DNA of 64,000 nt from Thermoanaerobaculia bacterium (GCA_036399015.1 DASWNW010000086.1:722-64721), one strand, 5' to 3'; positions 7,219 to 59,121 are shown, counted from the stretch's first letter. Notes: generated from the sequence alone by a model not told the origin. Translations and numbers: made by a program.

Positions 7219-7350
7219 GGTTGCTGGTTGCTGGTTGCTCGTGTCGGTTGTCAGTTGCTCGTTGTCAGTTGTCGGTTGTCGGTTGTCCGTGGAGTGTCGC
7301 CCGGGCGGGAACCCACGTCGACAACTGACAACCGACAACCGACAACACAA
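7219..7350. repeat. composite tandem-unit hairpin: 3x GTTGCTG units then long GTTGTCG/CGACAAC palindrome (stem ~27 bp)
   Basis: ggttgctggttgctggttgctc..gttgtcagttgtcggttgtcggttgtcc-loop-gacaactgacaaccgacaaccgacaac between fpg 3' end and ECF sigma start. Confidence 0.75.
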
Positions 7351-9725: not shown

Positions 9726-11675
9726 ATGACGACCACTACGGAAATACTCCCGCCCTCTTCCACGACGCAGCGCGCCACCATCCCGATCTTCGATGCCGCA
9801 GAGATCTCCAGAGCATCGGAGGAGGCGCTCGCCCGCGCGCGCGAACTGCTGTCCCGGATCGAGACGCTGCCGCTCGAAGAGGTGAGCGTGGAGCGGGTGC
9901 TCGACGCCTGGGACGAGACGGCGACCGTGCTCGAAGACGCGTTCGGGCCGATCTCGCTCCTCAACAGCGTCCATCCGGACAAGGACGTGCGCGACGCGTC
10001 CGACGTGGCGTTGGTGGCGGAGTCGTCGTTCCTCACTGAGGTCTTTCAGAACGAGGCGTTCTACGAGCGGGTGCGGCGCGTGGAGCCCGACAGCGTGGCC
10101 GCGCGCGAGATGCAGAAGCAGCTCATCGAAGCCTTCGAGGACAGCGGCGTCTCGCTGCCGCCGGAGAAGCGGAAGCGCTTCAAGGAGATCTCCGACCGCC
10201 TCACGGAGCTGGGGCAGGAGTTCGCCAAGAACGTGCGCGAGAACGACACCCGCCTCCGCTTCACGCCCGACGAATGCCGGGGGATGCCGCAGTCGTGGCT
10301 GGAGCGGATGCCGCGCGACGAACAGGGCAACTACGTCGCCGGCTTCGACTACCCCGACTACGTCCCGTTCCTCATGAACGCGCAGGACGAGGAGGCGCGC
10401 CGCCGCTACTGGACGGCGAACACGCTGCGGGGGACGGAGCGGAACCTCGCGGTGCTCGACGAGATCGTGGCGCTGCGGAAGGAGATCGCGGAGCTGTACG
10501 AGGTGCCGAGCTTCGCCCACTACGTCACCAAGCGGCGGATGGTCGAGAACCCCGACACCGTGACCCGCTTCCTCGACGAGGTGCGGAACGTCGTCACCGA
10601 GGCGGAGCTGCGCGACCTGCGCGACCTGGCGGAGCTCAAGGCCGAGCTCACCGGCGACGCGAACGCGCGGATCCACCGCTGGGACGTCCCCTACTACCGC
10701 GAGCGGCTGCGCGAGCGGCGCTACGCCATCGACCAGGAAGAGCTGCGGAGCTACTTCCCCTCCGAGCCGACCGTCCGCTGGATGCTGGACATCAGCGAAC
10801 GGCTGTACGGCGTCCGCTTCACCCGCGGCACCGTGCCGGTGTGGCACGACGACGTCATTTACCTCGACGTCACCGACGCCTCGACCGGCGCGTTCATCGG
10901 CGGCATCTTCCTCGATCTCTACCCGCGCGACGGCAAGTACAAGCATGCCGCGGCCTGGCCGGTGCGCGGCGTCAGCCGCCGGACGGGGCGCAAGCCGATC
11001 AGCGTCCTGGTCACGAACTTCGACCGAAAGGGGCTGACGCACGACGAGCTGGAGACGCTGCTGCACGAGTTCGGGCACGTCCTGCACGGCGTGCTGTCCG
11101 ACACCTATTACATCGGCCATTCGGGGACGAGCGTGCAGCGCGACTTCGTGGAGGCGCCGTCGCAGATGTACGAGGAGTGGGCGAGCCGGATGGAGAGCCT
11201 CTCGCTGCTGCGCGACCACTGCAGCGGCTGCCCCGCCATCGACGCGTCGCTCGTCGACCGCCTGAACGCTGCGAAGAAGTTCGGCTCCGGCATCGACTAC
11301 GGCCGGCAGTGGCTCTACGCCTCCTTCGACATGGCGCTGTCGAGCGAGACGCCGGGGCGCTCGCTGGACGTCTGGGCGGAGATGGAGGGGGCGACGCCGA
11401 TGGGTCACGTTGCGGGGACGCAGTTCCCCGGCACGTTCGAGCACATCGCCAGCGGCTACGCGGCCGGCTACTACGGCTACATGTGGGCGAAGGTGATCGC
11501 GCTCGACCTGGTGTCGGCGTTCGGGAGCGACCTGATGAACAGCGAGACCGGCCGCCGCTTCCGGGAGCTGATCCTGAGCCGCGGCAGCGAGGAGCCGGCG
11601 CGCGACCTCGTGGAACGGTTCCTCGGCAGGCCCGTGGCCAGCGACGCGTTCTTCAATCACATCCGCGGCGTGTGA
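9726..11675 (+). CDS. M3 family zinc metallopeptidase (oligopeptidase A / peptidyl-dipeptidase Dcp-like)
   Basis: 649 aa; HEFGHVLHG HExxH motif and M3-type downstream E; overall M3 length/architecture. Confidence 0.85.
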   Translation: MTTTTEILPPSSTTQRATIPIFDAAEISRASEEALARARELLSRIETLPLEEVSVERVLDAWDETATVLEDAFGPISLLNSVHPDKDVRDASDVALVAESSFLTEVFQNEAFYERVRRVEPDSVAAREMQKQLIEAFEDSGVSLPPEKRKRFKEISDRLTELGQEFAKNVRENDTRLRFTPDECRGMPQSWLERMPRDEQGNYVAGFDYPDYVPFLMNAQDEEARRRYWTANTLRGTERNLAVLDEIVALRKEIAELYEVPSFAHYVTKRRMVENPDTVTRFLDEVRNVVTEAELRDLRDLAELKAELTGDANARIHRWDVPYYRERLRERRYAIDQEELRSYFPSEPTVRWMLDISERLYGVRFTRGTVPVWHDDVIYLDVTDASTGAFIGGIFLDLYPRDGKYKHAAAWPVRGVSRRTGRKPISVLVTNFDRKGLTHDELETLLHEFGHVLHGVLSDTYYIGHSGTSVQRDFVEAPSQMYEEWASRMESLSLLRDHCSGCPAIDASLVDRLNAAKKFGSGIDYGRQWLYASFDMALSSETPGRSLDVWAEMEGATPMGHVAGTQFPGTFEHIASGYAAGYYGYMWAKVIALDLVSAFGSDLMNSETGRRFRELILSRGSEEPARDLVERFLGRPVASDAFFNHIRGV

Positions 11676-15011: not shown

Positions 15012-15045
15012 TCTCTCCCTGGAGCGACGGGCTCTCAGCCCGTCG
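15012..15045. repeat. small palindromic element (CTCTGGAGCGACGGGCTCTCAGCCCGTC family) just after stop codon
   Basis: tctctccctggagcgacgggctctcagcccgtcg; same element at 22141, 26594, 30788, 63164. Confidence 0.7.
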
Positions 15046-15438: not shown

Positions 15439-16854
15439 ATGAGTCAGTCGAGAGAGAACGCCGAGGCTACGTCTTTTGCCGAGGCGATGGAGAATCTGGA
15501 CCTCAAAACCCCGCAGCAGGGTGAGCTGCTCCGTGGCACGATCGTCTCGATCTCGGGCGAAGACGCCTACATCTCCTACGGCGGTCCTTCCGAGGCCGTG
15601 ATGGATACCGCGGAGCTCGAGGGTCTCGACATCGGCGATTCAATCGAGGCGACCGTGGTCAAGACCGGCGCCGAGATCCGCGTCTCGCGCAAGCTGATCA
15701 AGGGGAAGGCATCGCTCGACCAGCTCCGCACCGCGTTCGAGAGCCGTCTCCCCGTCGAAGGCAAGGTCACCGGCCGCAACAAGGGCGGCTTCGAAGTGAA
15801 CATCAGCGGCCTCCGCGTGTTCTGCCCCCTGTCACAGATCGCCCTCGGCAAGATCGAGAACCCTGACGCGTTCGTGAACCAGAACATCGAGTTCCGCGTC
15901 ACCGAGATGTCCGATGACGGCCGCCGCATCGTCGTCTCCCGCGCCGCCCTGCTGAAGGAAGCGGCCGCCGAGCGCGCCGCCGAGACCCGCGCACGCATCG
16001 TCCCGGGCGCCGAGCTCACCGGACGCGTCAAGACCCTCACCCCCTTCGGCGCCTTCGTCGACCTGGGCGGCGTGGACGGCCTGCTGCACGTCTCCGAGAT
16101 GAGCCGCCGCCGCGTCACCAATCCCCAGGACGTCGTCCAGATCGGACAGGAAGTCCACGTCAAGGTCATCAAGATCGAGAACGACGGCAAGCGCATCTCG
16201 CTGTCGATGAAGGATCAGGAGCCGGATCCCTGGTACGACGTGGCCGAGCGCTTCACGCCGGGCACGCAGTTCTCCGGCCGCATCGTCCGCTCGACCGACT
16301 TCGGCTTCTTCGTCGAGGTGGAGCCGGGCGTCGACGGGCTCGTGCACGTCTCGCAGCTCCCGCACGGCGTCAAGCCGGGCGACGCGGAAGTGGCCATCGG
16401 CACGCACGTGCAGGGCTGGGTCCGCGAGGTCGATCCCTCGAAGAAGCGCCTCTCGCTCTCCCTCCGCGCCATCGCGGTGGACGATCCGTGGGAGACCGCC
16501 ACGCAGCGCTACTCGGTCGGCAAGGTCGTGAACGGCACCGTCGACCACGGCGCCGCCCCCGGCATCTTCGTCGAGCTCGAGCCGGGCCTCACCGGCCTGA
16601 TCCCGAACTCCGAGATCGCCGCCCCGTCCGGGGTCGATCCGGCCGAGGCACACCAGCCGGGCGAGAAGCTGATGGTGCGCATCATGAGCATCGACCCGCA
16701 GCGCAAGCGCATCTCCCTCTCGCACGAAGCCGCGAAAGCAGCCGCCGAGCGGGAGGAGTACACGAAGTTCATGGACGAGCGCAACGACGAAGCCAGCAGC
16801 GAGTCGGCCATGGCGCTGGCGTTCAAACGAGCAATGGAAAAGAAGAACCGGTAA
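15439..16854 (+). CDS. rpsA: 30S ribosomal protein S1 (six S1 domains)
   Basis: 471 aa; repeated S1 RNA-binding domain signatures (GxV..FGAFV..G..GLLHVSE); followed by canonical terminator. Confidence 0.85.
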   Translation: MSQSRENAEATSFAEAMENLDLKTPQQGELLRGTIVSISGEDAYISYGGPSEAVMDTAELEGLDIGDSIEATVVKTGAEIRVSRKLIKGKASLDQLRTAFESRLPVEGKVTGRNKGGFEVNISGLRVFCPLSQIALGKIENPDAFVNQNIEFRVTEMSDDGRRIVVSRAALLKEAAAERAAETRARIVPGAELTGRVKTLTPFGAFVDLGGVDGLLHVSEMSRRRVTNPQDVVQIGQEVHVKVIKIENDGKRISLSMKDQEPDPWYDVAERFTPGTQFSGRIVRSTDFGFFVEVEPGVDGLVHVSQLPHGVKPGDAEVAIGTHVQGWVREVDPSKKRLSLSLRAIAVDDPWETATQRYSVGKVVNGTVDHGAAPGIFVELEPGLTGLIPNSEIAAPSGVDPAEAHQPGEKLMVRIMSIDPQRKRISLSHEAAKAAAEREEYTKFMDERNDEASSESAMALAFKRAMEKKNR

Positions 16855-16858
16855 GAAA

Positions 16859-16882
16859 GGCCGCCCTCCGGGCGGCCTTTTT
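16859..16882 (+). terminator. rho-independent terminator of rpsA
   Basis: GGCCGCCC-TCC-GGGCGGCC followed by TTTTTG, 5 nt after stop. Confidence 0.8.
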
Positions 16883-16953
16883 GTTGCTAGTTGCTGGTTG
16901 CTGGTGCCTTCGGCCGCCACATCACAAGCAACCAGCAACCAGTAACCAGCAAC
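16883..16953. repeat. GTTGCTG-unit tandem hairpin repeat
   Basis: gttgctagttgctggttgctggtg-loop-caaccagcaaccagtaaccagcaac. Confidence 0.75.
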
Positions 16954-18599: not shown

Positions 18600-19552
18600 G
18601 AGCGGTTGGGATCGTAGCCGGTGTTGCCGCCGCCGGTGCCGCCCGTGCCGCCGGTGCCACCGGTACCGCTGGTGCCGCCGGTTCCACGGTAGTCGGCGCC
18701 GCCCGTACCACCCGTACCGCGATAGTCCGTGCCGCCCGTGCCGGCCGTGCCGCCGGTGCCGCGATAGTCGGTGCCGCGGTCGTAGCCCGGTCCGCGGTCA
18801 AAGTCCGCGCCGGCGACCGTGGTCGTCGTCTCATCCTTCCCGCGATTCACCGCCGCGTAGATCAGGCCTGCGCCGAGGGCGAGGGCCGCTACGCCGGCAG
18901 CAACCTTGGCCGGGTTCTCACGCGTGTACGACGTCACCTTGCTGCTCGAGCCCTTGAGGTAGTCGCGCGCCGTGTTGAGGTACTCGTCGACGTCGACGTT
19001 CTCGAACTGCGAGCGGAGGCTGCCGAGCAGGCCTTCGATGCCGCCGGCCTTGCTGAGCGACTGTCCGCAGTGCGTGCAGAAGTGGTCTTCCCCGGTGTCG
19101 GACGAGGAGCCGGTCGAGCCGGTGCCCGCCGTGCTGCCGCCGCCGTCGCCGACACCACCGCTGCCGCTGCCGCCACCGAGGCCGCTGCCAGCGAGGCCGC
19201 TGCTGCCGGTGCTGCCACCGAGGCCACTGCCACCGAGACCGCTGCTGCCGGTGCTGCCTCCGAGACCGCTGCCGCCGCTGCTGCCGCTGCTGCCGGAGCC
19301 GGCGCCACCGGAGCCATACGAGCCGCTGCCGCTGCCGCTGCCCGGGTTGAGCGAGCCGCCGGAGCTGCTGCCGCCGCCCGTTCCCGAGCTGCTGCCGCCG
19401 CTGCCGGTGGTCATGCCGCCGCCCGACGACATGCCGGTGCCGGTGCCGCCGGAGCCGTAGCCGGCCCCGGTGGACGTGCCGCCCGAGCCGCTGTTCCCTG
19501 TGGTTCCGCCGCTGATGCCGGAGATGGGGTCGTTAGGATCGTTCTGAGCCAT
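18596..19552 (-). CDS. Gly/Ser/Thr-rich low-complexity protein with DUF883 (ElaB/YqjD)-like C-terminal membrane anchor and DYRGTGGT repeats
   Basis: Start set at Met16 (19552) preceded by GGAGG RBS; ..YTRENPAKVAAGVAALALGAGLIYAAVNRG resembles ElaB/YqjD tail anchor. Confidence 0.5.
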   Translation of the reverse strand: MAQNDPNDPISGISGGTTGNSGSGGTSTGAGYGSGGTGTGMSSGGGMTTGSGGSSSGTGGGSSSGGSLNPGSGSGSGSYGSGGAGSGSSGSSGGSGLGGSTGSSGLGGSGLGGSTGSSGLAGSGLGGGSGSGGVGDGGGSTAGTGSTGSSSDTGEDHFCTHCGQSLSKAGGIEGLLGSLRSQFENVDVDEYLNTARDYLKGSSSKVTSYTRENPAKVAAGVAALALGAGLIYAAVNRGKDETTTTVAGADFDRGPGYDRGTDYRGTGGTAGTGGTDYRGTGGTGGADYRGTGGTSGTGGTGGTGGTGGGNTGYDPNRS

Positions 19553-20066: not shown

Positions 20067-20175
20067 GCAGTCGCAGAGTCGCAGAGTCGCAAAGTCGCAG
20101 AGGAGGGAGCGCAGCCTTTGAGCCTCTGACACTCTGAGACTCCGCGACTTTGAGACTCTGCGACTCTGCGACTAC
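20067..20175. repeat. tandem-unit hairpin repeat, unit GCAGAGTC / GACTCTGC, ~45-bp stem, in divergent promoter region
   Basis: cagtcgcagagtcgcagagtcgcaaagtcgcagagg-loop-cctctgacactctgagactccgcgactttgagactctgcgactctgcgact. Confidence 0.75.
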
Positions 20176-20184
20176 GATCCGGCC

Positions 20185-22140: not shown

Positions 22141-22176
22141 CGCCGGGCTGAGAGCCCGGCGCTCCAGAGAGACCGA
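22141..22176. repeat. small palindromic element (inverted orientation) after ggt stop
   Basis: cgccgggctgagagcccggcgctccagagagaccg = reverse complement of CTCTCTGGAGCGCCGGGCTCTCAGCCCGGCG. Confidence 0.7.
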
Positions 22177-22178
22177 AA

Positions 22179-22218
22179 CCCGAGGAACTCCGAGGAACTC
22201 CGAGGAACCCGAGGAACC
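22179..22218. repeat. four direct CCGAGGAAC units (one arm only)
   Basis: cccgaggaactccgaggaactccgaggaacccgaggaacccc. Confidence 0.65.
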
Positions 22219-22219
22219 C

Positions 22220-27473: not shown

Positions 27474-27563
27474 GTTCCTCGGAGTTCCTCGGCAGTTCCT
27501 CGGGTTCCTCAGCCGACCTCCCCCGAGGAACCCCGAGGAACCCCGAGGAACCCCGAGGAACCC
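27474..27563. repeat. GTTCCTCGG x4 / CCGAGGAAC x4 hairpin repeat after tonB
   Basis: ggttcctcggagttcctcggcagttcctcgggttcctc-loop-ccccgaggaa x4. Confidence 0.75.
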
Positions 27564-29322: not shown

Positions 29323-29414
29323 GAATGAAGAATTTCGAATGAAGAATGAAGAGGTTGTTCACGGCCGCCGGCTGGACTTTATTCTTCATTCTTCATTCGA
29401 ACCTCTTCATTCGA
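29323..29414. repeat. tandem-unit hairpin repeat, unit GAATGAAGA / TCTTCATTC
   Basis: gaatgaagaatttcgaatgaagaatgaagag-loop-ttcttcattcttcattcgaacctcttcattcg. Confidence 0.75.
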
Positions 29415-29424
29415 TTGGAGCCAC

Positions 29425-32160
29425 ATGCGACGAGCCGTCACCCTCGCGATCCTCCTCCTCTCCCTCTCCCTCCACGCCCTCCCTCCAAACGTCGAAAAGA
29501 TCGACTCCTTCCGCGGCATCGACCAGTACCGCCTCAAGTCCAACGACATGACCATCCTGCTGGTGCCGAACCACGCCAGCCCGGTCGTCACGTTCATGGT
29601 GGTCTACCACGTCGGCTCGCGGAACGAGGCGCCGGGGAACACCGGCTCGGCGCACCTGCTCGAGCACATGATCTTCAACAAGTCGACCGAGAACTTCGGC
29701 CGCGCCAAGGGCCACAAGACGTTTCAGGAAGTGCTCTATGAGGCGGGCGCCGACTATTCGTCGACGAACATGACCACCTGGAACGACCGGATGAACGGCT
29801 ACTCCACGCTGCCGTCCGACAAGCTGGAGCTGGCCATGAAGATCGAGGCCGACCGGCTCGGCCGCGGCCTCATCCTCGACAGCGAGCGGCAGTCGGAGAT
29901 GTCGGTCGTCCGCAACGAGTACGAGATCGGCGAGAACGACCCGTCGAACGCGCTCTGGAAGAACGTCATCGCCACGGCCATCCAGGCGCACCCCTATCAC
30001 TGGGACACGATCGGCTACCGCTCCGACATCGAGGGCGTGACGACCGAGAAGCTGCGCGAGCACTACAAGACGTTCTTCTGGCCCGACAACGCGGAGGCCA
30101 TCCTGGTCGGCGACTTCGACACGGAGCAGGCGCTGGCGATGTTCGACCGCGAGTTCGGCGCCTTCAAGAAGAGCGACAAGCCGATCCCGCAGGTGATCAC
30201 CGTCGAGCCGCCGCAGGAAGGGGAGCGCCGCGTCGTCGTGCAGCGCCCCGGCACGGTCGGCATCGTGCAGATCGGCTACATGCGTCCCGGCGCGCTCGAT
30301 CCCGACTTCATCGTCCTCGACGTGCTCAGCTCCATCCTCGGCGACGGCGTGAACTCGCGCCTCTACCGTGCGCTCGTCGAGAAGCAGCTCGCCACCAGCG
30401 TCAGCTCGCACAACTTCACGCTCCGCGATCCCTACCCGCTGATGATCGAGGCGAACCTCGCCGCCGGAAAGGCCCACACCGACGTGGAGCAGGGCATCAA
30501 GGCCGCGGTCGCCGAGGTCGTCGCCAAAGGGGTGACGGACGAAGAGGTGAAACGCGCGCAGCAGCAGATCGAGGTCGCCGTCATCCGCAGCCGCGACGGC
30601 ACCTTCAACTACGCCTCCAACCTCGGCGAGTCGGTGGCGTCGACGAACTGGAAGTGGTTCCTGACCTACGTCGACAACGTCAAGGCCGTGACCGCCGCGG
30701 ATGTGAAGCGCGTCGCGTCGGCCTACCTGACGCCGGAGCGGGCGACCGTCGGCTGGTTCGTCCCGGGGACCGCCGTGAAGCCCGTCCCCTCTGGAGCGAC
30801 GGCCTCTCAGGCCGTCGCCGCGAAGACGGAGAGCCGGGCTGAGAGCCCGGCCGTGCAGAGAGAGACCAAACCCGCCGCCGGCTCCTTCGCCCAGCGCACC
30901 ACCCGCCGCGTCCTCCCGAACGGCATCATCGTCGACGTCGTCGAGAACCACGCCGTCCCCACCGTCGCCATCCGCGCCCTCGCGTTCGCGGGCGACATCG
31001 CCGCGCCTGCCGGGAAGCCGGCCGTCCCCGCGCTCACCGCGAAGATGCTCGCCCGCGGTACGAAGTCGCGCACGAAGGAGCAGATCGGCAAGCTGCTCGA
31101 CGACGTCGGCGCGACCCGCTCCTACGCGACTAACCTCACCGAGGCGCTGGTGAGCGCGAACGGGATGTCGCGCGACCTGCCGCTGCTGCTGGAAGTCCTC
31201 GGCGACGAATTGAAGAACCCCGCCTTCACGGCCGAGGAGCTGGAGAAGGCGAAGAACGAGCTCGAGAACGACTACCTGCGCGCCGACGATCAGACCAGCG
31301 CCCGCGCGATGCAGCGCCTCAGCCAGCTCGTCTACCGTGAGAACCATCCGTACTACGCCTTCGGCCGGGCGAAGCTCGTCGAGAGCGCGAAAGCGGCGAC
31401 CGCGGACGACCTCCGCGGCTTCCATCGCGCCCGCTACGCCGGCGCGGGGCTGATCGTGGCCATCGTCGGCGACGTCGACACCGCGAAGACGCTGGCGCTG
31501 GTCGAGAAGCAGCTCGGCGGCCTGCCGAAAGGGGAGCGGATCTCGTTCGCGCAGCTCCCACGCACCACTCCCGCCGCGAAGGGCGTGCGCGAGGCGGTGA
31601 CGATGCCCGGCAAGGCGAACATGAACATCGTCATGGGCACCGCCTCCGGTCTCCGCCGCAACGATCCCGACTACGAGGCCGCGCTCATCGCCAACGCCGC
31701 GCTCGGGCAGACGGCGCTCTCGTCACGCATCGGCCGCCGCGTGCGCGACACCGAGGGCTTGTCGTACAACCTCGCGTCGCGCTTCTGGAACAGCGACGTG
31801 CTCGACGGCGTCTGGTGGGTGAACGTCAACGTCGCGCCGCAGAACCTCGAGAAGGCGATGAAGTCGACCTACGAGGAGATCGTGAAGTTCGGCCGCGAGG
31901 GGGTCACCGACGAAGAGGTGGCGGCGCAGAAGAGCTTCTTCGCCGGCAACTACAAGGTCGGCCTCGGCTCGAACGCCGGCGTCGCCACGGCCCTCGTGAC
32001 GGCGGAGAAGTTCGGCTTCGGCCCCCGCTACCTCGACGAGTTTCCCGCGCGCATCAACGCCGTGACGAAGGACCAGGTGAACGCCGCCATGCGCAAGTAC
32101 CTCTTCCCCGACCGGCTGCACGTGATCGTGGCGGGAGATCTGGAGAAGGTGCCTGATTAG
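29425..32160 (+). CDS. secreted M16 (pitrilysin/insulinase) family zinc peptidase, double-module (911 aa), carrying in-frame palindromic-element insertion in the inter-module linker
   Basis: Signal peptide; inverted zinc motif HLLEHMIF (HxxEH); second M16-like half; linker residues ..PSGATASQAVAAKTESRAESPAVQRETKP.. are encoded by two copies of the palindromic element. Confidence 0.85.
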   Translation: MRRAVTLAILLLSLSLHALPPNVEKIDSFRGIDQYRLKSNDMTILLVPNHASPVVTFMVVYHVGSRNEAPGNTGSAHLLEHMIFNKSTENFGRAKGHKTFQEVLYEAGADYSSTNMTTWNDRMNGYSTLPSDKLELAMKIEADRLGRGLILDSERQSEMSVVRNEYEIGENDPSNALWKNVIATAIQAHPYHWDTIGYRSDIEGVTTEKLREHYKTFFWPDNAEAILVGDFDTEQALAMFDREFGAFKKSDKPIPQVITVEPPQEGERRVVVQRPGTVGIVQIGYMRPGALDPDFIVLDVLSSILGDGVNSRLYRALVEKQLATSVSSHNFTLRDPYPLMIEANLAAGKAHTDVEQGIKAAVAEVVAKGVTDEEVKRAQQQIEVAVIRSRDGTFNYASNLGESVASTNWKWFLTYVDNVKAVTAADVKRVASAYLTPERATVGWFVPGTAVKPVPSGATASQAVAAKTESRAESPAVQRETKPAAGSFAQRTTRRVLPNGIIVDVVENHAVPTVAIRALAFAGDIAAPAGKPAVPALTAKMLARGTKSRTKEQIGKLLDDVGATRSYATNLTEALVSANGMSRDLPLLLEVLGDELKNPAFTAEELEKAKNELENDYLRADDQTSARAMQRLSQLVYRENHPYYAFGRAKLVESAKAATADDLRGFHRARYAGAGLIVAIVGDVDTAKTLALVEKQLGGLPKGERISFAQLPRTTPAAKGVREAVTMPGKANMNIVMGTASGLRRNDPDYEAALIANAALGQTALSSRIGRRVRDTEGLSYNLASRFWNSDVLDGVWWVNVNVAPQNLEKAMKSTYEEIVKFGREGVTDEEVAAQKSFFAGNYKVGLGSNAGVATALVTAEKFGFGPRYLDEFPARINAVTKDQVNAAMRKYLFPDRLHVIVAGDLEKVPD
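30788..30868. repeat. two inverted copies of small palindromic element inside M16 peptidase CDS (in frame)
   Basis: ctctggagcgacggcctctcaggccgtcgcc ... gagccgggctgagagcccggccgtgcagagagag. Confidence 0.7.
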
Positions 32161-32240
32161 TTACTGGTTGCTGGTTGCTGGTTCCTTGTGAGTCGTTGAG
32201 CGCGGGCAAACCAGCAACCAGCAACTAGCAACCAGCAACG
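32161..32240. repeat. GTTGCTG-unit tandem hairpin repeat between convergent genes; right arm overlaps last codons of methyltransferase
   Basis: ttactggttgctggttgctggttcc-loop-aaaccagcaaccagcaactagcaaccagcaac. Confidence 0.75.
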
Positions 32241-32734
32241 CGCCTCATCACCAGTTCTCCGATCTCCCCCTCCCGCGAATGCAGCAACTCCCATCCCTCG
32301 AAGAACGACCCCAGCTCTCCCGGGCTGGCTGCGAACCGCCCCTTCATCCGGGCGGCGGTGACGAGCAGTCCGCCCGGGCGGAGCACCCGCTTCGCTTCCG
32401 CGAAGAGCGGGCGGTGCAGGTAATAGAGGATGAGTACGAGGTCGAACGACTCGTCCTCGAAGGGGAGCGGCGCGCCGGTCTCGAGGTCGAGCACGCGCGC
32501 GTCGACCGCCGGTTCGTGCTCCCGCAGCAGGCGGATCGCCTCCTCGGCGCCGTCGATCGCCACCACCTCCCACCCTCCGCGCGCGAGCCAGATGGCGTTC
32601 CGGCCGGCGCCGCAGGCGAGGTCGAGTGCGCGTCCGGGGGCGACGCCGCGCAGCGCATCGACGAGGAGTTCCGCCGGGCGGTCGTCGATGTCGTCGCGCG
32701 TGCGGTAGCGCTGGTTCCACTCGTCGAGACTCAC
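32225..32734 (-). CDS. class I SAM-dependent methyltransferase, TehB-like (tellurite/selenite methyltransferase family)
   Basis: 169 aa; motif I VLDLACGAGRNAIWLARGG; small TehB-like size; C-terminal VAGC-stop encoded by the GTTGCTG repeat. Confidence 0.7.
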   Translation of the reverse strand: MSLDEWNQRYRTRDDIDDRPAELLVDALRGVAPGRALDLACGAGRNAIWLARGGWEVVAIDGAEEAIRLLREHEPAVDARVLDLETGAPLPFEDESFDLVLILYYLHRPLFAEAKRVLRPGGLLVTAARMKGRFAASPGELGSFFEGWELLHSREGEIGELVMRRVAGC

Positions 32735-34523: not shown

Positions 34524-34540
34524 TACGCGCCTACGGCGCG

Positions 34541-34621
34541 GTTGCTGGTTGCTGGTTGCTCGTGAACTCCCAGCCACACGGCGCCATAGCAACCAGCAAC
34601 CAGTAACCAGTAACCAGCAAC
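34541..34621. repeat. GTTGCTG-unit tandem hairpin repeat inside efflux operon (between adaptor and ATPase genes)
   Basis: gttgctggttgctggttgctcgtg-loop-caaccagcaaccagtaaccagtaaccagcaac. Confidence 0.75.
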
Positions 34622-34638
34622 GCGAGCGGAGCGAGCCA

Positions 34639-35394
34639 ATGAGCGCAGTCTTCAAATTCGAATCCTGGCAGGAATCCGAGCCCGTGGCGCCGACCGCGGT
34701 GGCGGTCGACAAGTCGCTCATCCAGCTCGAGCGCGTCTTCAAGACCTACGACTCCGGCGAGAACGCCGTGCAGGCGCTGCGCGGCGTCGACCTGAAGATC
34801 GGCGCCGGCGAGTTCTGCGCGATCATCGGCCCCTCCGGCTCCGGCAAGTCGACCCTCATGCACATCCTCGGCTGCCTCGACTCGCCGACCGAGGGGCGGT
34901 ACTGGCTCGACGGCGAAGACGTCGCGGCGATGACGGGCAAGCAGCTCGCCCGCATCCGCAACAAGAAGCTCGGGTTCGTCTTCCAGACCTTCAACCTCCT
35001 GCCGCGCGCCACGATCTGGAAGAACGTCGAGCTGCCGCTGCTCTACGCCGGCGTCGACGGCGACGAGCGCCGCGAGCGGGCGTACAAGGCGCTCGAGCGG
35101 GTCGGGCTCGCCGACCGCGCCAAGCACCGCCCGAACCAGTTGTCGGGCGGCCAGCGACAGCGCGTCGCCGTGGCGCGTGCCCTCGTGAACGCCCCCTCGC
35201 TGATCCTCGCAGACGAGCCGACCGGGAACCTCGACCAGAAGACCGGCGGCGACATCATCCGCCTCTTCGAGGAAGTGGCGGCCGGCGGGCAGACCATCGT
35301 CCTCGTCACGCACGATCCCGCGATCGCCGCGCGCACGCACCGCCGCATCCGCATCGTGGACGGTCTCGTGGCGGACGGCGACGAGCTGGAGTAG
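34639..35394 (+). CDS. ABC transporter ATP-binding protein (MacB/LolD-like)
   Basis: Start Met31 of ORF 34549..35394; Walker A GPSGSGKST, signature LSGGQRQRVAVARAL, Walker B ILADEPTGNLD. Confidence 0.85.
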   Translation: MSAVFKFESWQESEPVAPTAVAVDKSLIQLERVFKTYDSGENAVQALRGVDLKIGAGEFCAIIGPSGSGKSTLMHILGCLDSPTEGRYWLDGEDVAAMTGKQLARIRNKKLGFVFQTFNLLPRATIWKNVELPLLYAGVDGDERRERAYKALERVGLADRAKHRPNQLSGGQRQRVAVARALVNAPSLILADEPTGNLDQKTGGDIIRLFEEVAAGGQTIVLVTHDPAIAARTHRRIRIVDGLVADGDELE

Positions 35395-35397
35395 GCC

Positions 35398-36627
35398 ATG
35401 TTGATCTTCGAATCGATCGTCGACGGCATCCGCGACATCAAGGACCACTTCGGCCGGACGCTGCTCCAGCTCTTCGGCGTCATCCTCGGGACCGGCTCGA
35501 TCATCGCCACCTTCTCGCTCTCGGTGGCGGGCAAAGAGGCCTCGATGAAGTTCTACCGCGTCAGCGGCGGGATCGAGCGCATCTGGATCGGCAACAAGCC
35601 GACCGGCAAGGTCACGCTCGACGCGAAGGCGCTCGCCTCCGACGGCCTGACTTACAAAGACGCGCTGGCGCTGCGCGCGGAAGGGAAGGAGATCGACCTC
35701 GTCTCCCCGGTGGCGCAGGACTCCATGAGCGTCCGGTACGGCGCGATCGAGAAGAAGCGCGACGTCATGGGCGTCACGCCGGCGTATTCGCCGATCAGCT
35801 TCTTCCACGTCGAGCGCGGCCGCTTCATCACCGACTACGACCTGCAGAGCGCGGCGCGCGTCGTCGTCCTCGGCACCGCGCGCGCCGAGGAGTTCTTCGG
35901 GAGCGACAACCCCATCGGCAAGACCATGATCATCAACGGCGCCGGCTACCTCGTGGTCGGCGTCATGGAAGAGAAGTACTTCAGCTTCGACCAGCGGCGG
36001 AACGTGCTGCGCTGGATGAACCGGCAGATGTACATGCCGATCACCACCATGACCACGCGCCAGGGGCAGCCGCTGCAGAACGGCAAGCTCTCGTTCATGC
36101 ACGCGCGCATGAAGGACGTGAAGCGTCACAAGGAAGCGGTTGCCGAGATCGAGCGCATTCTCCAGCGCCAGCACGGCGTCAAGGACTTCCAGGTCTTCTC
36201 GCGCGTCGCCAACCTGGCCAAGAACGAGAGCGAGAACAAGATGTACGACGTCACCTTCATGATCTGCGGGATCATCTCGCTGCTCGTCGGCGGGATCGTG
36301 ATCATGAACATCCAGCTGGCCTCCTTCAACGAGCGGGTGCGGGAGATCGGCACGCGCAAGGCGGTCGGCGCGACCCCCGCGCAGATCTTCTTCCAGATGC
36401 TCACGGAGTCGGTGCTGGTGTCGGTCCTCGGCGGTCTCCTCGGCATCTTCGCCGGCAAGTTCTTCACCCAGGGCATCTCCATGCTCACCCGCAATCCCGC
36501 GATCATCACCCCCGGCGTCATCGTGAATGCACTGATCTTCGCCGCCGGGACCGGGTTGTTCTTCGGCATGTACCCGGCCATCCGCGCGTCGCGGCTCAAT
36601 CCGATCGAGGCACTGAGAACCGAATGA
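35398..36627 (+). CDS. ABC transporter permease, FtsX/MacB-type (4 TM with large periplasmic domain)
   Basis: 409 aa; MacB_PCD-like periplasmic region and C-terminal FtsX-like TMs. Confidence 0.8.
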   Translation: MLIFESIVDGIRDIKDHFGRTLLQLFGVILGTGSIIATFSLSVAGKEASMKFYRVSGGIERIWIGNKPTGKVTLDAKALASDGLTYKDALALRAEGKEIDLVSPVAQDSMSVRYGAIEKKRDVMGVTPAYSPISFFHVERGRFITDYDLQSAARVVVLGTARAEEFFGSDNPIGKTMIINGAGYLVVGVMEEKYFSFDQRRNVLRWMNRQMYMPITTMTTRQGQPLQNGKLSFMHARMKDVKRHKEAVAEIERILQRQHGVKDFQVFSRVANLAKNESENKMYDVTFMICGIISLLVGGIVIMNIQLASFNERVREIGTRKAVGATPAQIFFQMLTESVLVSVLGGLLGIFAGKFFTQGISMLTRNPAIITPGVIVNALIFAAGTGLFFGMYPAIRASRLNPIEALRTE

Positions 36628-36632
36628 GAGCT

Positions 36633-36722
36633 GTTGCTGGTTGCTGGTGGCTGGTTCCTTGTGAGGTGTTCCTCCACGCACCCACTGCGTCACGAGCAAC
36701 AAGCAACGAGCAACCAGCAACC
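36633..36722. repeat. GTTGCTG-unit tandem hairpin repeat between the two permease genes
   Basis: gttgctggttgctggtggctggttcc-loop-gagcaacaagcaacgagcaaccagcaacc. Confidence 0.75.
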
Positions 36723-36742
36723 GCGAGCGAAGCGAGCGCAAT

Positions 36743-37969
36743 ATGAACATCTCCGAATCCGTCCGCACCTCCTACGAAGAAGTGAAGGGGCACCCGCTGC
36801 GGTCGCTCTTCACGCTGATCGGCGTCATCCTCGGCACGCTCGCGCTGGTGGTGGTCATGTCCGTGCTCGACGGCATTCAGATGTCGGTCCTGAAGGGCAT
36901 CAACGACCTCGGACTCGACGGCGTGGTCATCGCGTCGCAGCGCGAGCCGGTCGACCCGGTCGAGAAGGCGAAGGCGCATCTCTCGCGCGGCCTGCGCATC
37001 GAGGACGTGAAGGCGTTCGAGAACGCCGACTACATCCGCGCCATGTCGCCGGTCGGGGAGTCGCGCGCCGTCGTCACCGGCGGGACCACCACCCGCCGCA
37101 TCGACGTTTTCGGCGTGATGCCGGAGTACGCCGACATCCGCAACCGCACCGTGTCGTCGGGACGCTGGATCAGCGAGCGCGACGTGGCCACGAACGCCTC
37201 CGTCGCCGTGATCGGGTGGGAGCTCAAGCACAAGCTGTTCGGCGGCGAGGACGCCCTCGGGCAGAAGATCAACATCGGCGGACGCCGCGTGACGGTGATC
37301 GGCGTCGGCTCCAAGTTCGACATGACCTTCGTCGACGACGACGACATGCGCAAGGAGACCGCGGGCGCGTACGTCCCCTGGACCGTCTTCCGCGACATGT
37401 TCGGTCGCGTGAGCGCGATCTCGTACATGCTCGCCAAAGCCACGACGCCGGAGCAGAGCGTTGACGCCGAGGACGAGGCCGCGGCTCGGTTCCGTCAGGC
37501 GCACAACGGCATCCGCGACGTGCGCATCAACAACATCGGCAAGGAGATCCTCAAGGAGCGCGGGCAGATCGAGGTGATCCTGCGCAACTGGCGCATCGTC
37601 TTCTTCTCCATCGCCGGCGTCTCGCTGCTGATCGGCGGCGTAGGGATCTTCTCGGTCCTCAAGATCTCCATCTCCGAGCGCCTCTTCGAGATCGGCCTCC
37701 GCAAGTCGCTCGGCGCCACAAACGCCGAGATCTTCATGCAGTTCCTGATCGAGTCGGTGACGCTCTCCGTCGCCGGCGCCGCCATCGGCCTCGCCCTCGG
37801 TATCGGCCTCGTAAAAGTCGTCGGCGGCTTCTTCCCCGCCGGCCTCCCGGTGTCGACGTTCGGCCTCACCCTGGCCAGCAGCTTCGCCATCAGCGTCGGC
37901 CTCTTCGCCGGCCTCTACCCGTCCCTGACCGCGGCCCGCCTGGAGCCCGTCGAAGCGCTCCGCGCGTAG
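36743..37969 (+). CDS. second FtsX/MacB-type ABC transporter permease
   Basis: 408 aa paralogous to preceding permease. Confidence 0.8.
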   Translation: MNISESVRTSYEEVKGHPLRSLFTLIGVILGTLALVVVMSVLDGIQMSVLKGINDLGLDGVVIASQREPVDPVEKAKAHLSRGLRIEDVKAFENADYIRAMSPVGESRAVVTGGTTTRRIDVFGVMPEYADIRNRTVSSGRWISERDVATNASVAVIGWELKHKLFGGEDALGQKINIGGRRVTVIGVGSKFDMTFVDDDDMRKETAGAYVPWTVFRDMFGRVSAISYMLAKATTPEQSVDAEDEAAARFRQAHNGIRDVRINNIGKEILKERGQIEVILRNWRIVFFSIAGVSLLIGGVGIFSVLKISISERLFEIGLRKSLGATNAEIFMQFLIESVTLSVAGAAIGLALGIGLVKVVGGFFPAGLPVSTFGLTLASSFAISVGLFAGLYPSLTAARLEPVEALRA

Positions 37970-38005
37970 TGGCGAAGAGTGACGCGGAGATAGACTCTTC
38001 AGCGC

Positions 38006-38242
38006 ATGCCGTCGGTTCGAATCGAGGGGCCATACGACGTTTACTTCACGAGTCACGATCGAGGCGAACCACCTCACGTGCACGTCGACCGAGAGAGCAT
38101 GGCGGCCAAGGTCTGGCTTCAGCCAGTAGCCGTCGCCTACAATCTTGGCTTCGCGCGGCACGAGCTCCGGAAGATCGAGCAGTTGATCGCCCAGAACCGC
38201 GAGCTCTGTCTCAGAAAGTGGCATGAGTACTTCGGAACCTAA
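38006..38242 (+). CDS. DUF4160 domain protein
   Basis: 78 aa; YFTSHDRGEPPHVHV motif typical of DUF4160; lower local GC. Confidence 0.6.
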   Translation: MPSVRIEGPYDVYFTSHDRGEPPHVHVDRESMAAKVWLQPVAVAYNLGFARHELRKIEQLIAQNRELCLRKWHEYFGT

Positions 38243-38492
38243 AGCAGGGGAGCGCATCACAGCCGTTCGCGTGACGGATGATGCCCTCACGGTCGATCTC
38301 CTCGATGGCCGGACGATGACGGTGCCGCTCGCCTGGTATCCGCGCCTCCTGCACGCGTCCGAAGCGGAGAGAAATAACTTCCGGATCATCGGCGGCGGCT
38401 TCGTGATTCATTGGCTGGACGTCGACGAGCACCTATCCGCCCAAGGGCTCCTGGCCGGAGCTCCAGCGCCGAATCTCGCCGCCATCTCCTGA
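38223..38492 (+). CDS. DUF2442 domain protein (overlaps DUF4160 gene by 20 nt)
   Basis: 89 aa; ..LLDGRTMTVPLAWYPRL..GGGFVIHWLDVDEHLS typical DUF2442. Confidence 0.6.
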   Translation: MSTSEPKAGERITAVRVTDDALTVDLLDGRTMTVPLAWYPRLLHASEAERNNFRIIGGGFVIHWLDVDEHLSAQGLLAGAPAPNLAAIS

Positions 38493-53305: not shown

Positions 53306-53848
53306 ATGACCTCCGTCCTCGACGCAGTTCGCCAGCAACTCGGACCCGACACCATTCAACAATTGAGCGGCGCCCTCGGCGCCGATCCCGCCACGACGTC
53401 CAACGCCATCTCTGCCGCGTTGCCGGCGCTGCTCGGCGGTCTCGCGCAGAACGCGGCGCAACCGGAAGGCGCCGCCGCGCTCGACAGCGCGCTCGACCAG
53501 CATGACGGCAGCATTCTCGACAACCTCGGCAGCGCATTTGGCGGCGGCGGGAACGGTGCCGGCGCCGGCGCGCTCGGCGGCATCGGCGGCGCGATTCTCG
53601 GCCACATCTTCGGCGGCCGGCGCGGCCCGGTCGAAGAGGGCGTCGGCAAGGCCTCGGGCCTCAATGCCGCGCAGGTCGCTCAGCTCATGGCCCTGCTCGC
53701 GCCCATCGTGATGGGAGTCCTCGGCCGGATGAAACAGACGAAGAAGCTCGACGCGAATCGCCTGCCCGAAGTCCTCAACGACGGCGGCGGTGGGGCGGTC
53801 GGCAGCTTAGGCTCCATCCTCGGCGGGTTCTTCGGGCAGAAAGCGTGA
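53306..53848 (+). CDS. DUF937 (YidB-like) domain protein
   Basis: 180 aa Gly/Ala-rich; MTSVLDAVRQQLGPDTIQQLSGALG..ISAALPALLGGLA typical DUF937. Confidence 0.6.
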   Translation: MTSVLDAVRQQLGPDTIQQLSGALGADPATTSNAISAALPALLGGLAQNAAQPEGAAALDSALDQHDGSILDNLGSAFGGGGNGAGAGALGGIGGAILGHIFGGRRGPVEEGVGKASGLNAAQVAQLMALLAPIVMGVLGRMKQTKKLDANRLPEVLNDGGGGAVGSLGSILGGFFGQKA

Positions 53849-53925
53849 TGCCGGCGCCCGGCAAATCGTAAAGTCACACGGCTCGCCTCGCGCCTCGCGA
53901 GGCGGGCCAACTGCCCCCACCTCAC

Positions 53926-54186
53926 GATGGATATGGGGTCATGTCCATCGCCACGGCCGCGACGATGTGAGCGCGTCCGCCCGTACTCGCGAGGGACATG
54001 GGGTGATGTCCCTCGCCGCTGCCGCGACGACGTGAGTGCGTCCGTCCGTGCTCGCGAGGGACATGGGGTGATATCCATCGCGGCTGTCGCGACGATCTGC
54101 GTGACGCCGCCGCGGCGCAAATCGAGGTCGAGTGACCTCGAGCGCGACGTCCGTGGGACTGACGATGGACATCCCCCCATGTCCCT
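53926..54186. repeat. array of four 24-bp palindromes (GAGGGACAT-N6-ATGTCCCTC type) within ~64-bp tandem units upstream of serine-hydrolase gene
   Basis: P1 53926, P2 53990, P3 54056, P4 54163; inter-palindrome segments also mutually similar (gccgcgacgatgtgagcgcgtccg..ctcgcgag). Confidence 0.7.
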
Positions 54187-56549: not shown

Positions 56550-58244
56550 TCAGGCCGGTTTGCCCCAGAAATAACCCTGGCCGTACTCGATCCCCAGCGA
56601 CCGCACAACCTCCAGCTCGCCAGCCGTCTCGATCCCCTCGGCGACGATGGCGCAGCCGAGCGTCCGCGCCACCCCGACGTACCGCCGCAACTGCTCGATC
56701 CGGGCACGGTCGCCGACGATCCCGATCACACACCGCTTGTCGATCTTGATGATCTCCGGCTGCAGCAGGATCAGGCTCTCCAGGCAACTGCTGCCGAAGC
56801 CGACGTCGTCGATGGCGATCATCACCCCCGCCGCCCGCAGCGCCTGCACCGCCGGCAGCAGGTACGACGGGTCGCCGATGATCTGCTGCTCGCTGATCTC
56901 CAGGCAGAACGTCTCCGCCGGCAGCGGCTTCGGGAAGAGGTCGAGCAGATGCTCCACCGGCACCGCCAGCAGCGTGGTCGGGAAGATGTTCAGGTGGAAG
57001 CGGGCATACGGCGGCAGTTGCATGGCCGCGCTCATCGCCGAGCGGAGGCAGGCGTGGTCGACGAGCGTGAGGATGTTCTTCTCCGAGCAGACGCGGAAGA
57101 AGTTCTCCGGCAGCTCCAGGCCGCCGTTCGAGTAGCGGCTCAGGAACTCGTATCCGATCGGGCTCTCGCCGGCGAGCTCGAAGATCGGCTGCTTCACCGT
57201 GAGGATGTGCCGTCCGCGCGAGAGATTGCCGCACATGTCCGTCTGCGCGCGCATGCGGCGGTCGGTGTCGTCGAAATCGGCGGCGGCCGACACGACCCGG
57301 TTCTTCCCCTCGCTCTTCGCCCGCGCCAGGAGCATGTGCGCGCGCGCCAGCAACTGATCGACCGCCGGCATGTCCTCGGTGAGCAGCATCGCGGCAATCG
57401 AGGCGGTGAGCGTCACCGTCCCGGTGCTGTGCTGGATCATCGCCGTGGCGATCGCCAGGCGGATCCGCTCGGCGACGCGCATCACCTCGGCCGGCTCGGT
57501 CTCCGGCAGCAGGAGCATGAACTCGTCGCCGCCGATGCGTCCGACGTAGTCGACCGCGCGGATCGACGCGCGCAGCCGCCGCCCCACTTCCTTCAGCACG
57601 ACGTCGCCCGCCGCGTGGCCGAGGTGGTCGTTGATGTGCTTGAAGTCGTCGAGGTCGACGAGCAGCACCGCGCTCGACGCCGCCGCGCGGTTCATGTGCT
57701 GCACCTCGCGCGAGAGCGCCTGCTGCAGTCCGCGCCGGTTGAGCAGCTCCGTCAGCGGCTCGACCAGCGTGAGCCGCTCGAGGTCGCGGTTGACGTTCTC
57801 CAGCTCCTTCTTCACCCGCGCCAGGTCGCGCACGCCGCGGTGCCGCTCGACGGCATAGCGGATCGAGCGGATGAGCGAGTCGAAGTCGATCGCCCCCTTG
57901 CGCAGGTAATCCTCCGCGCCGAAATGCAGCGCGTCGCTCGCGAGCGTGTCGTCGCCGCGGCCGGTGAGCACGATGACCGGGATCTCGTGCACCGCCGCCT
58001 CGAGCCGGATCAGCGCCTGCAGGTCGGTCGCGTCGGGCAGGCCGAGGTCGAGGATCACGACGTCGAGATCGCCGCCGCGCACCGCCTCGCAGGCGGCGGC
58101 CGCGCTGGTGACGTGCCGGATCGTGAACTGCGGATCGCCCGACACCTCGAGCAACGCGCGCAGGGAACGGGCCGAGCTGAGGTCGTCCTCGACGATCAGC
58201 AGCCGAAGGACGTGCGCCGCGGTAGCTGAATGAGAGACTGCCAT
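56550..58244 (-). CDS. response regulator with REC, GGDEF and EAL domains
   Basis: 564 aa from ATG 58244; GGDEF motif RIGGDEF; EAL-domain motifs (EFLSR, DDVGFG, EGIE..GQGYFW). Confidence 0.85.
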   Translation of the reverse strand: MAVSHSATAAHVLRLLIVEDDLSSARSLRALLEVSGDPQFTIRHVTSAAAACEAVRGGDLDVVILDLGLPDATDLQALIRLEAAVHEIPVIVLTGRGDDTLASDALHFGAEDYLRKGAIDFDSLIRSIRYAVERHRGVRDLARVKKELENVNRDLERLTLVEPLTELLNRRGLQQALSREVQHMNRAAASSAVLLVDLDDFKHINDHLGHAAGDVVLKEVGRRLRASIRAVDYVGRIGGDEFMLLLPETEPAEVMRVAERIRLAIATAMIQHSTGTVTLTASIAAMLLTEDMPAVDQLLARAHMLLARAKSEGKNRVVSAAADFDDTDRRMRAQTDMCGNLSRGRHILTVKQPIFELAGESPIGYEFLSRYSNGGLELPENFFRVCSEKNILTLVDHACLRSAMSAAMQLPPYARFHLNIFPTTLLAVPVEHLLDLFPKPLPAETFCLEISEQQIIGDPSYLLPAVQALRAAGVMIAIDDVGFGSSCLESLILLQPEIIKIDKRCVIGIVGDRARIEQLRRYVGVARTLGCAIVAEGIETAGELEVVRSLGIEYGQGYFWGKPA

Positions 58245-58288
58245 ACAGTACGGATACAGCCGCGCCGGGCGGGCGAACGTGACGGCGG

Positions 58289-58927: not shown

Positions 58928-58981
58928 GAGCTTCCTCCAACTGACGTAGCGACGTGGGCGAGGGAAAGTGTTCACTCTGAT

Positions 58982-59070
58982 GTTGTCGGTTGTCGGTTCT
59001 CAGTTGTCCGGGGCTCCTCGTCACCCCAACACCGCAGACAACCGACAACCGACAACCGACAACCGACAAC
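58982..59070. repeat. GTTGTCG / CGACAAC tandem-unit hairpin repeat in divergent promoter region; followed by direct repeat cgcaggccgcgcc x2
   Basis: gttgtcggttgtcggttctcagttgtcc-loop-gacaaccgacaaccgacaaccgacaaccgacaacc. Confidence 0.75.
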
Positions 59071-59121
59071 CGCGGCCGCAGGCCGCGCCCGCAGGCCGCG
59101 CCGCCTGCTACCATCTTCCCG

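Follow-up and report, generated by a model that had tools for sequence, protein, structure and literature searches.

The window analyzed here is a 64-kb stretch of DNA from a Thermoanaerobaculia bacterium (GCA_036399015.1, DASWNW010000086.1:722-64721; 64,000 nucleotides, with all coordinates counted from its first base). It has a G+C content of 68%, and both its nearest named proteins and contigs of about 80% nucleotide identity belong to the Thermoanaerobaculia of the phylum Acidobacteriota. Near its middle, between an M16 peptidase gene and a convergent methyltransferase gene, lies a long hairpin built from tandem heptamers (32160-32239), which is the focus of this study. Its 5' arm reads GTTACTG GTTGCTG GTTGCTG GTTCC (32160-32187) and its 3' arm comprises 4.4 copies of a CAGCAAC-type unit (32209-32239). 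The first base of the hairpin is the last base of the TAG stop codon of the peptidase gene, and its far end overlaps the 3' end of the methyltransferase gene. Folded as RNA it reaches -44.7 kcal/mol on the plus strand and -42.7 kcal/mol on the minus strand, with z about -5, such that the two strands are nearly equal; like the other palindromes below, it is listed without a strand.

By direct reading of the sequence and with Tandem Repeats Finder (TRF), we delineated four complete (GTTGCTG)n-spacer-(CAGCAAC)n hairpins in the window, each with three to four GTTGCTG-like units, a spacer and four to five CAGCAAC units. In addition to the focal copy, one (16883-16953; 5' arm 16883-16905, 3' arm 16927-16953) follows an S1-domain (rpsA-like) gene and precedes an epimerase gene, whose start is at 16959. 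It stands directly 3' of a canonical intrinsic terminator on the plus strand (16839-16882; GGCCGCCC-TCC-GGGCGGCC followed by T5), which belongs to the context and lies outside the family. The remaining two are both within an operon of the HlyD/ABC-ATPase/MacB/MacB type as identified by Pfam. The first of these (34540-34621; three units in the 5' arm at 34540-34560, five in the 3' arm at 34588-34621) separates the HlyD gene (stop 34523) from the ABC ATPase gene and is followed by the ribosome-binding site (RBS)-like motif GCGAGCGGAGCGAGC and then an ATG. The second (36633-36722), whose inner units are degenerate, separates the first MacB/FtsX permease gene (stop 36627) from the second (start 36743) and is followed by GCGAGCGAAGCGAGC. 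The contiguous stem is about 20-23 bp in these hairpins, with inner extensions adding to it, and the four complete copies fold as RNA at -39 to -51 kcal/mol (z = -5.0 to -5.8 versus shuffles); for the hairpins as a whole, energies reach -65 kcal/mol and z-scores -5.9. A search with GTTGCTGGTTGCTG at up to two mismatches recovered 24 matches in the window versus 0.32 expected from dinucleotide shuffles, all of them confined to five loci.

These five loci had been grouped under one architecture in an earlier, model-made reading of the stretch (hereafter the sequence-only reading). The grouping holds for the four complete hairpins, with the focal one shifted by a single base from 32161-32240, and the contexts proposed there, namely behind the rpsA-like gene and a canonical terminator, between convergent genes and inside an operon, were borne out by Pfam and by the sequence. 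The fifth locus, 7219-7241, had been taken for a left arm only; it in fact forms the outermost part of a compound hairpin of 131 nt (7219-7349) with a 5' arm of about ten units (two GTTGCTG, one GTTGCTC and then GTTGTCR units). Its 3' arm is (CGACAAC)x4, and the outer GTTGCTG units are therefore unpaired. The flanking genes, both on the minus strand, encode an Fpg glycosylase (stop 7351) and an ECF sigma factor (start 7174). The claim that the loops are non-conserved fails for the loci at 32160 and 36633, which have GGTTCCTTGTGAG in common just inside the 5' arm. The interval 5439-26854 is identical or differs by one base in two independent metagenome assemblies (ENA and JGI); since the hairpin at the rpsA locus is identical in both, it is not an assembly artefact. 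The two matching assemblies, together with the presence of the family in isolate genomes, exclude this explanation.

Within a wider class of tandem-heptamer hairpins, those with GTTGCTG units form one sub-family. At least five further hairpins in the window have the same build of an array, a spacer and a reverse-complement array, with other units. A GTTGTCG/CGACAAC hairpin is found at 58982-59072 (3.9 and 5.1 copies), and a GAATGAA/TTCATTC hairpin (29323-29398) begins 2 nt past the stop of a GNAT acetyltransferase gene (29320), with the M16 peptidase gene next. Units of 10 nt (GTTCCTCGGN/CCCCGAGGAA) form a hairpin at 27474-27563 between a TonB_C gene (stop 27465) and a SWIB-domain gene (start 27571), and units of 8 nt (AGTCGCAG/CTGCGACT) form one at 20068-20176, which ends 9 nt ahead of the ATG of a gamma-glutamyltranspeptidase gene (20185). 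A short GGTTCCTCG/CCGAGGAAC hairpin (4463-4521) has convergent genes on either side, as does a one-armed (CCGAGGAAC)x4 array (22177-22219) with no partner arm nearby. Altogether there are about ten intergenic tandem-unit hairpins in the 64 kb, and approximately half of the intergenic spacers of at least 60 nt contain one, as estimated from a rough gene map based on G+C at third codon positions.

TRF was applied to the window and to 110 further loci (about 0.85 Mb in all), and arrays were paired with their reverse complements, yielding 160 hairpins. A period of 7 nt is seen in 153 of these, including 49 of the 56 whose unit differs from the one used as the search query. GTTGCTG-type arrays are nearly always paired (120 paired versus 11 solo). 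Across 725 units from seven phyla they follow the consensus GTT-R-CT-N, with G or A at position 4, a free position 7 and about 98% fixation at positions 1-3, 5 and 6. The length of the elements is 60-130 nt, no conserved head is seen in their flanks, and the arrays, which end abruptly on the outside, decay on their inner side. Between the perfect heptamer runs there are 14-62 nt (median 35), and the stem frequently continues into this stretch, with at least five extra base pairs in 35% of the hairpins versus 1.3% of shuffled sequences, leaving a residual loop with a median of about 25 nt.

The arms show a strict polarity. The 5' arm has more G than C in all 104 GTTGCTG hairpins, and among the 56 hairpins with other units it does so in 50, the reverse being seen in five and equality in one (42:5:1 once eight hairpins at search-found sites are set aside). 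As a control, plain perfect inverted repeats of at least 11 bp from the same DNA gave a ratio of 59:48. The swapped order, AGCAACCAGCAAC-N15-45-GTTGCTGGTTGCTG, was recovered from only two related contigs in a whole metagenome collection, the forward order having been recovered at 110 or more loci in a different collection, that of genomes. The two reversed hairpins, (CAGCAAY)n-loop-(RTTGCTG)n, come from related soil metagenome contigs (L113 1437-1585 and L114 395-540) and have very long right arms. A second regularity concerns position: counting only stop codons that close an open reading frame (ORF) of at least 100 codons, 73 of the 160 hairpins have one no more than 5 nt from the 5' arm and 111 no more than 20 nt away, as against 5% and 10% for random positions. 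By crude gene calls, the flanking genes are co-directional in 82 cases, convergent in 26 and divergent in 15.

The family is not restricted to the window. A scan for GTTGCTGGTTGCTG-N15-45-AGCAACCAGCAAC in one genome per species matched at least 110 loci, and the matches listed span seven phyla. Acidobacteriota account for at least 74 loci, mostly in Thermoanaerobaculia and with at least 21 from a single metagenome-assembled genome, followed by Bacteroidota (at least 22, the isolates Hymenobacter saemangeumensis and H. pini among them), Planctomycetota (at least six), Gemmatimonadota (at least four), KSB1 (at least two), and Chloroflexota and Desulfobacterota (at least one each). The viral contigs searched with both the forward and the reversed pattern returned no match; thus, this is not a phage feature. 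A search of Rfam gave no match at the gathering threshold, and a permissive E-value search gave only chance matches to microRNA precursors (E 0.25-0.6).

Comparison of the HlyD-ATPase-MacB-MacB operon in eleven relatives (84-95% protein identity) revealed a turnover of these elements at orthologous sites. At the junction between the permease genes, which holds the hairpin at 36633 in the window, the unit is GTTGCTG in the window and L081, GTTGTCR in L117 and L118, GGATTGA in L119, GGGATTA in L121 and GTTGCGS in L123, and a CTTTACAG-type hairpin is found in L075. The same junction is empty in L115 (TAA-GAC-ATG), L116 (an ATGA overlap), L120 and L122. At the HlyD/ATPase junction, the site of the hairpin at 34540, the unit is GTTGCTG in the window, L075 and L087, AGCTCKC in L115 and L123, GTTGTCR in L118 and GGGATTA in L121. 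At this junction L117 has a one-armed AAGCCYG-type array, L119, L120 and L122 have non-repeat hairpins, and L116 has no hairpin and retains a single CAGCAAC unit. Within a genome the unit type tends to agree between junctions: of the seven or eight genomes with two filled junctions, five show such agreement (the window, DATLOL, L118, L121 and L123). The RBS-like GCGAGCGRAGCGAGC precedes the start codon after the permease-junction element in the window, L081, L117, L118 and L121 (L119 and L123 lack it), and is retained while the unit type of the neighboring hairpin changes. In the window this motif lies ahead of both the ATPase and the second permease gene, 2-6 nt from their start codons (34622-34638 and 36723-36742), and it recurs in L081, L087, L116, L117, L118 and L121. 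Two further observations come from these operons. In L087 (5945-6128, HlyD/ATPase junction) the whole GTTGCTG hairpin with its trailing motif is tandemly duplicated, with a length of 118 bp. The L121 hairpins (1594-1743 and 3730-3842) are built of G-quadruplex-prone GGGATTA/GGGATGA units, a type studied in Nostoc and Xanthomonas.

Comparable patterns are seen elsewhere. Filled and empty versions of an orthologous site distinguish L053 from L074; together with the filled and empty permease junctions, this provides the presence/absence polymorphism raised in the sequence-only reading. In orthologous hairpins (L026/L065, L101/L024 and L014/L105) the arms are about 95-100% identical, the loops have diverged and the unit copy number varies. 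Where the window has its (GAATGAA)n hairpin, L075 carries (GAATGCA)n and L087 no more than a short GAATGGATGAAG..CTTCATTC hairpin. Directly adjoining this GAATGAA/GAATGCA hairpin is a cassette-like indel: the segment 29425-32239, comprising the M16 peptidase gene and its 3' GTTGCTG hairpin, is present in L115 and L117 and missing from L075, L087 and L118. Within single genomes the copies share more than their arms. Eleven copies in SMAG_U12094 have a common 48-nt core (GTTGCTGGTTCGTGGTGGCT..AGCCACCACGAACCAGCAAC; mean column identity 85%), an outer 8-mer, GTTGCTGT/ACAGCAAC, is common to many copies of SMAG_U12094 and SMAG_U13825, and an inner core, CTTGTGAG, is common to the window copies and those of another species, SMAG_U11946.

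The architecture and the GTTGCT core have already been noticed in work on Geobacter and Xanthomonas. In Geobacter metallireducens, 24 pairs of four tandem GTTGCTYN units on opposite strands were described as 'class 1 putative global-regulator binding sites', along with paired TCTCCGTS[Y] and heptamer MTYCTGA classes; all were guessed to be sites for integration host factor (IHF) or HU, and ISGme8 and ISGme9 lie at a constant spacing from them (Aklujkar et al. 2009, PMC2700814). The hairpins studied here resemble these in having at least three tandem units with a GTTGCT core, arrays on opposite strands at a short and variable distance, intergenic locations and dozens of copies, and in the existence of further unit classes of the same build. 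They differ in having a period of 7 nt rather than four units of 8 nt and in occurring in another phylum, the consensus having been compared from the text of that paper alone. The Geobacter accounts do not describe polarity, the relation to stop codons or turnover, and the IHF/HU interpretation is untried there. Xanthomonas genomes each have about 70-75 convergent pairs of GGGAATC arrays capable of forming stem-loops (Rehm et al. 2015, PMC4692102). These too are intergenic heptamer arrays, belonging to the over-represented heptanucleotide long simple sequence repeats of Mrazek 2007; they vary in length between species while preserving their type, and the GGGATTA units of L121 are used alike; however, they are prone to form G-quadruplexes and were studied as such, and many are unpaired, whereas GTTGCTG arrays nearly always have a partner. 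Hence, the remark of the sequence-only reading that this is no recognized repeat family needs to be narrowed: it is distinct from REP/BIME (repetitive extragenic palindromes and bacterial interspersed mosaic elements), ERIC (enterobacterial repetitive intergenic consensus), Correia elements and RPE (Rickettsia palindromic elements), and has no Rfam match, but the paired arrays of Geobacter (PMC2700814) and Xanthomonas (PMC4692102) are precedents.

Among the better-known elements, REP/BIME behave similarly, being abundant, species-specific extragenic palindromes in 3' untranslated or intercistronic regions, often near stop codons, with no target-site duplications and a plausible role as mRNA stem-loops. 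In structure they differ: a REP is an imperfect palindrome, 20-40 nt in length, that has a conserved GTAG/GTGG head but is free of internal tandem repeats, whereas the present elements are longer, lack such a head and have arms made of tandem repeats. TAACTGA heptamer direct repeats, known from Beggiatoaceae, Cyanobacteria and Bacteroidetes (MacGregor 2015, PMC4679880), and the short tandemly repeated repetitive (STRR) heptamers of cyanobacteria likewise place one heptamer in intergenic arrays of distant phyla with no known mechanism. However, the TAACTGA arrays are one-armed and mostly just upstream of starts, with only one inverted case, in contrast to hairpins located just past stops. Integron attC sites were rejected: they require the order RYYYAAC ... 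GTTRRRY, whereas here GTT comes first and AAC last, and CAGCAAC misfits RYYYAAC just as GTTGCTG misfits GTTRRRY. Neither Chi-like sequences (GCTGGTGG), NAG repeats of the HutP/TRAP type, ARN motifs of Hfq nor Rho rut sites are known to fit all the unit types. In the searched literature the GTTGCTG repeat string does not occur, and we found there no earlier account of the phylum breadth, polarity, stop-codon rule or turnover, nor of the dominance of the 7-nt period or the lack of a U-tract, of target-site duplications and of a sense-strand RNA signature.

Taken together, we read the five loci as members of a dispersed, REP-like family of intergenic palindromes that is spread or homogenized at the DNA level, resized by 7-nt slippage and carried passively in mRNA as a stem-loop, an interpretation to which we give about an even chance of being right. 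The typical element has a GTT-R-CT-N array as its 5' arm, the complement as its 3' arm, and a spacer of 15-45 nt that often extends the stem with a lineage-specific core. Within a genome, spread or homogenization could rest on copying and pasting that leaves no target duplication, or on templated ectopic repair; the arms might grow and shrink through replication slippage in steps of 7 nt, their complementarity could be kept by template switching from arm to arm, and elements would be removed by hairpin-stimulated deletion. Persistence just downstream of stop codons might then reflect that a self-closing stem barely disturbs expression there. Once transcribed, a stem of 20-35 bp may act passively, either hindering 3' exonucleases or uncoupling neighboring cistrons as a substrate of RNase III.

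Several points weigh against this interpretation. The model leaves unexplained why polarity is strict, why the period is 7 nt and why one unit recurs across phyla, and the conservation of the unit at fixed positions suggests that something reads its sequence. Neither a mobilizing enzyme nor a full-length parent element was found, nor were target-site duplications; the sole Y1 transposase seen, in L115, is flanked by a different REP. Covariation among the 11 paralogous copies of SMAG_U12094 did not exceed that of shuffles, because there is too little variation among the copies. The gene calls at the external loci are crude ORF heuristics, and the suggested mRNA role is drawn only by analogy with REP/BIME stem-loops.

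The first of these points keeps alive the possibility that the arrays are sites for a conserved nucleic-acid-binding protein, several copies of which would read GTT-R-CT-N on the 5' arm, which is made first, or in the duplex and thereby govern the formation of the hairpin, the bending of the DNA or expression nearby. IHF/HU, as proposed for the GTTGCTYN pairs of Geobacter, or a cold-shock-domain protein with a footprint of 6-7 nt would be candidates. In its favor are the confinement of variation to unit positions 4 and 7, the recurrence of the GTTGCT core at an 8-nt period in Geobacter (PMC2700814), the unfailing 5' placement of the G/T-rich arm with the reversed form limited to the two metagenome contigs, and the preference of the cold-shock protein CspB for the pyrimidine-rich heptamer GTCTTTG/T, with 6-7 base-binding subsites (PMC1904285, PMC7825780). 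We nevertheless consider it unlikely: many unrelated units (GAATGAA, AGCTCKC, GGGATTA, AGTCGCAG and others) give this same build, in some cases at one and the same orthologous junction; close relatives lack the element altogether there; the adjoining genes have no obvious common functional theme; and cold-shock domains are poorly sequence-selective. A different account would make the hairpins purely local simple sequence repeats, grown in situ by 7-nt slippage in both arms of an ordinary small hairpin with no dispersal. Differences in unit copy number among orthologues and the GAATGAA, GAATGCA and short-hairpin states of a single site agree with this, and heptanucleotide long simple sequence repeats are, according to the summary of Mrazek 2007 in PMC4679880, the most abundant class in many bacteria, ascribed to polymerase slippage and possibly arising from a 7-nt polymerase contact. 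Local growth would leave unaccounted the non-repeat cores and the 8+7+7 unit order common to copies, the concordance of units within genomes and their discordance between them, the occurrence of the same unit in seven phyla, and the switching of unit type at a site with conserved flanks, and we regard it as slightly less likely still. The shared cores, the within-genome concordance, the sharp outer ends, the gain, loss and replacement of elements, the absence of target-site duplications and the strand symmetry favor dispersal over local slippage. Conceivable too, though doubtful, is that we are looking at the footprint of an unrecognized DNA process in many bacteria, one that writes, or copies in, short repeats rich in G whose polarity is fixed, such that from both sides the G-rich strand points 5' to 3' toward the center (compare head-to-head telomere arrays), and that overwrites a site with the host's current unit. 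GTT-R-CT-N might then also be read on the first-transcribed arm by a conserved single-strand binder, for instance a protein that has a cold-shock domain and a footprint of 7 nt.

Very unlikely, in our view, are transcription terminators or attenuators without a U-tract, possibly acting bidirectionally, despite the high stability of the stems and their location directly past stop codons and between convergent genes. Canonical intrinsic terminators have a GC-rich stem, a loop of 3-8 nt and a U-tract; here five or more T in the 8 nt past the stem were seen in only 15 of the 160 hairpins, leaving 145 with no T-tract, and the median loop remains about 25 nt even when inner stem extensions are counted. 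Copies occur between cistrons whose orthologues overlap as ATGA and just ahead of start codons, and one is right behind a canonical terminator. Such terminators are in use elsewhere in the window, and the terminator scan did not report the hairpins. In the 90 hairpins with one clear upstream gene, the folding energy was -53.1 kcal/mol in the sense and -54.0 in the antisense orientation (p = 0.38), and G.U pairs were fewer on the sense strand (137 versus 202, p = 0.04); there was thus no sense bias in stability or in G.U pairs to indicate selection on a sense-strand RNA. The placement at stop codons and the absent U-tracts speak against a terminator role, and a transcribed stem would not be expected to work as a canonical terminator. 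The terminator or processing function implied by the sequence-only reading accordingly finds no support in the U-tract, in the copy behind the canonical terminator or in any sense-strand bias. Least probable of all, to the point of being nearly dismissed, are classical MITEs (miniature inverted-repeat transposable elements), that is, deletion derivatives of insertion sequences whose terminal inverted repeats would be the arrays, mobilized by a transposase in trans. Sharp outer boundaries, many dispersed copies with family-specific cores, presence/absence polymorphism and the fixed spacing of ISGme8 and ISGme9 from the Geobacter sites (PMC2700814) would suit such elements. However, direct repeats of 2-5 nt in the flanks of 120 elements were at chance level. 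Neither outcome that would have undone the sequence-only reading, restriction to the window or a match to an insertion-sequence or MITE terminus with target-site duplications, was observed. Moreover, no transposase gene lay between array pairs, and no autonomous insertion sequence with such termini was seen, in the approximately 0.85 Mb of the window and the 110 loci, and the viral contigs searched lacked the element.

A link to the REP-associated tyrosine transposases (RAYTs) gained no support in the loci covered, as the only Y1_Tnp gene found is flanked by the conventional REP GGAGCGGCGGGCTCTTAGCCCGCCG rather than by heptamer hairpins. This gene (L115 10734-11210) encodes a 158-residue RAYT-like protein and has GGAGCGGCGGGCTCTTAGCCCGCCG hairpins on both sides (10560-10740 and 11205-11350), constituting a conventional REP/RAYT pair in a 95%-identical relative, unrelated to the heptamer hairpins. 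A tblastn search with it against the window and the other loci covered gave no homologue. The window itself has small REP-like palindromes, GNCGGGCTGAGAGCCCGNC, at 15026-15044, 22142-22160 and 30833-30851, which resemble the REP around the L115 gene; two are intergenic just past stops and one lies inside the M16 peptidase gene.

The role of bacterial heptanucleotide repeats is still described as poorly worked out. In the window and its relatives many of them are halves of palindromes that obey strict rules: a 7-nt period, a G-rich 5' arm on both strands, a beginning at or near a stop codon, one unit across the junctions of a genome and fast replacement from one species to another. Should the rules apply across whole genomes, they would amount to a REP-like layer in the genome architecture of Acidobacteriota, Bacteroidota, Planctomycetota and further phyla, and the culturable carriers in Hymenobacter and Geobacter would offer handles on the mechanism.

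There is also a practical consequence for annotation. The heptamer arrays have no stop codon in any frame, as read from the sequence, and spurious ORFs therefore run through them, as the sequence-only reading had correctly claimed. Because such stop-free arrays extend spurious ORFs, they can mislead gene callers on high-GC metagenome-assembled genomes. In the window, mechanically derived ORFs on the minus strand cross hairpin arrays at 32157-32720, 34531-36768, 36596-38389 and 56550-59219, where false or extended gene calls are possible.

Two other repeats in the window were noted in passing. One, in the spacer around 53848-54105, is a 65-bp tandem repeat of 2.7 copies (85% identity) at 53921-54096. 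The other is a dense set of GC-rich repeats at 18629-19295, whose periods are 9, 27 and 42 nt (GCCGCCGGT-like); it lies within a minus-strand protein gene according to the gene calls of the matching contig, which suggests a repetitive protein rich in Gly, Thr and Ala.

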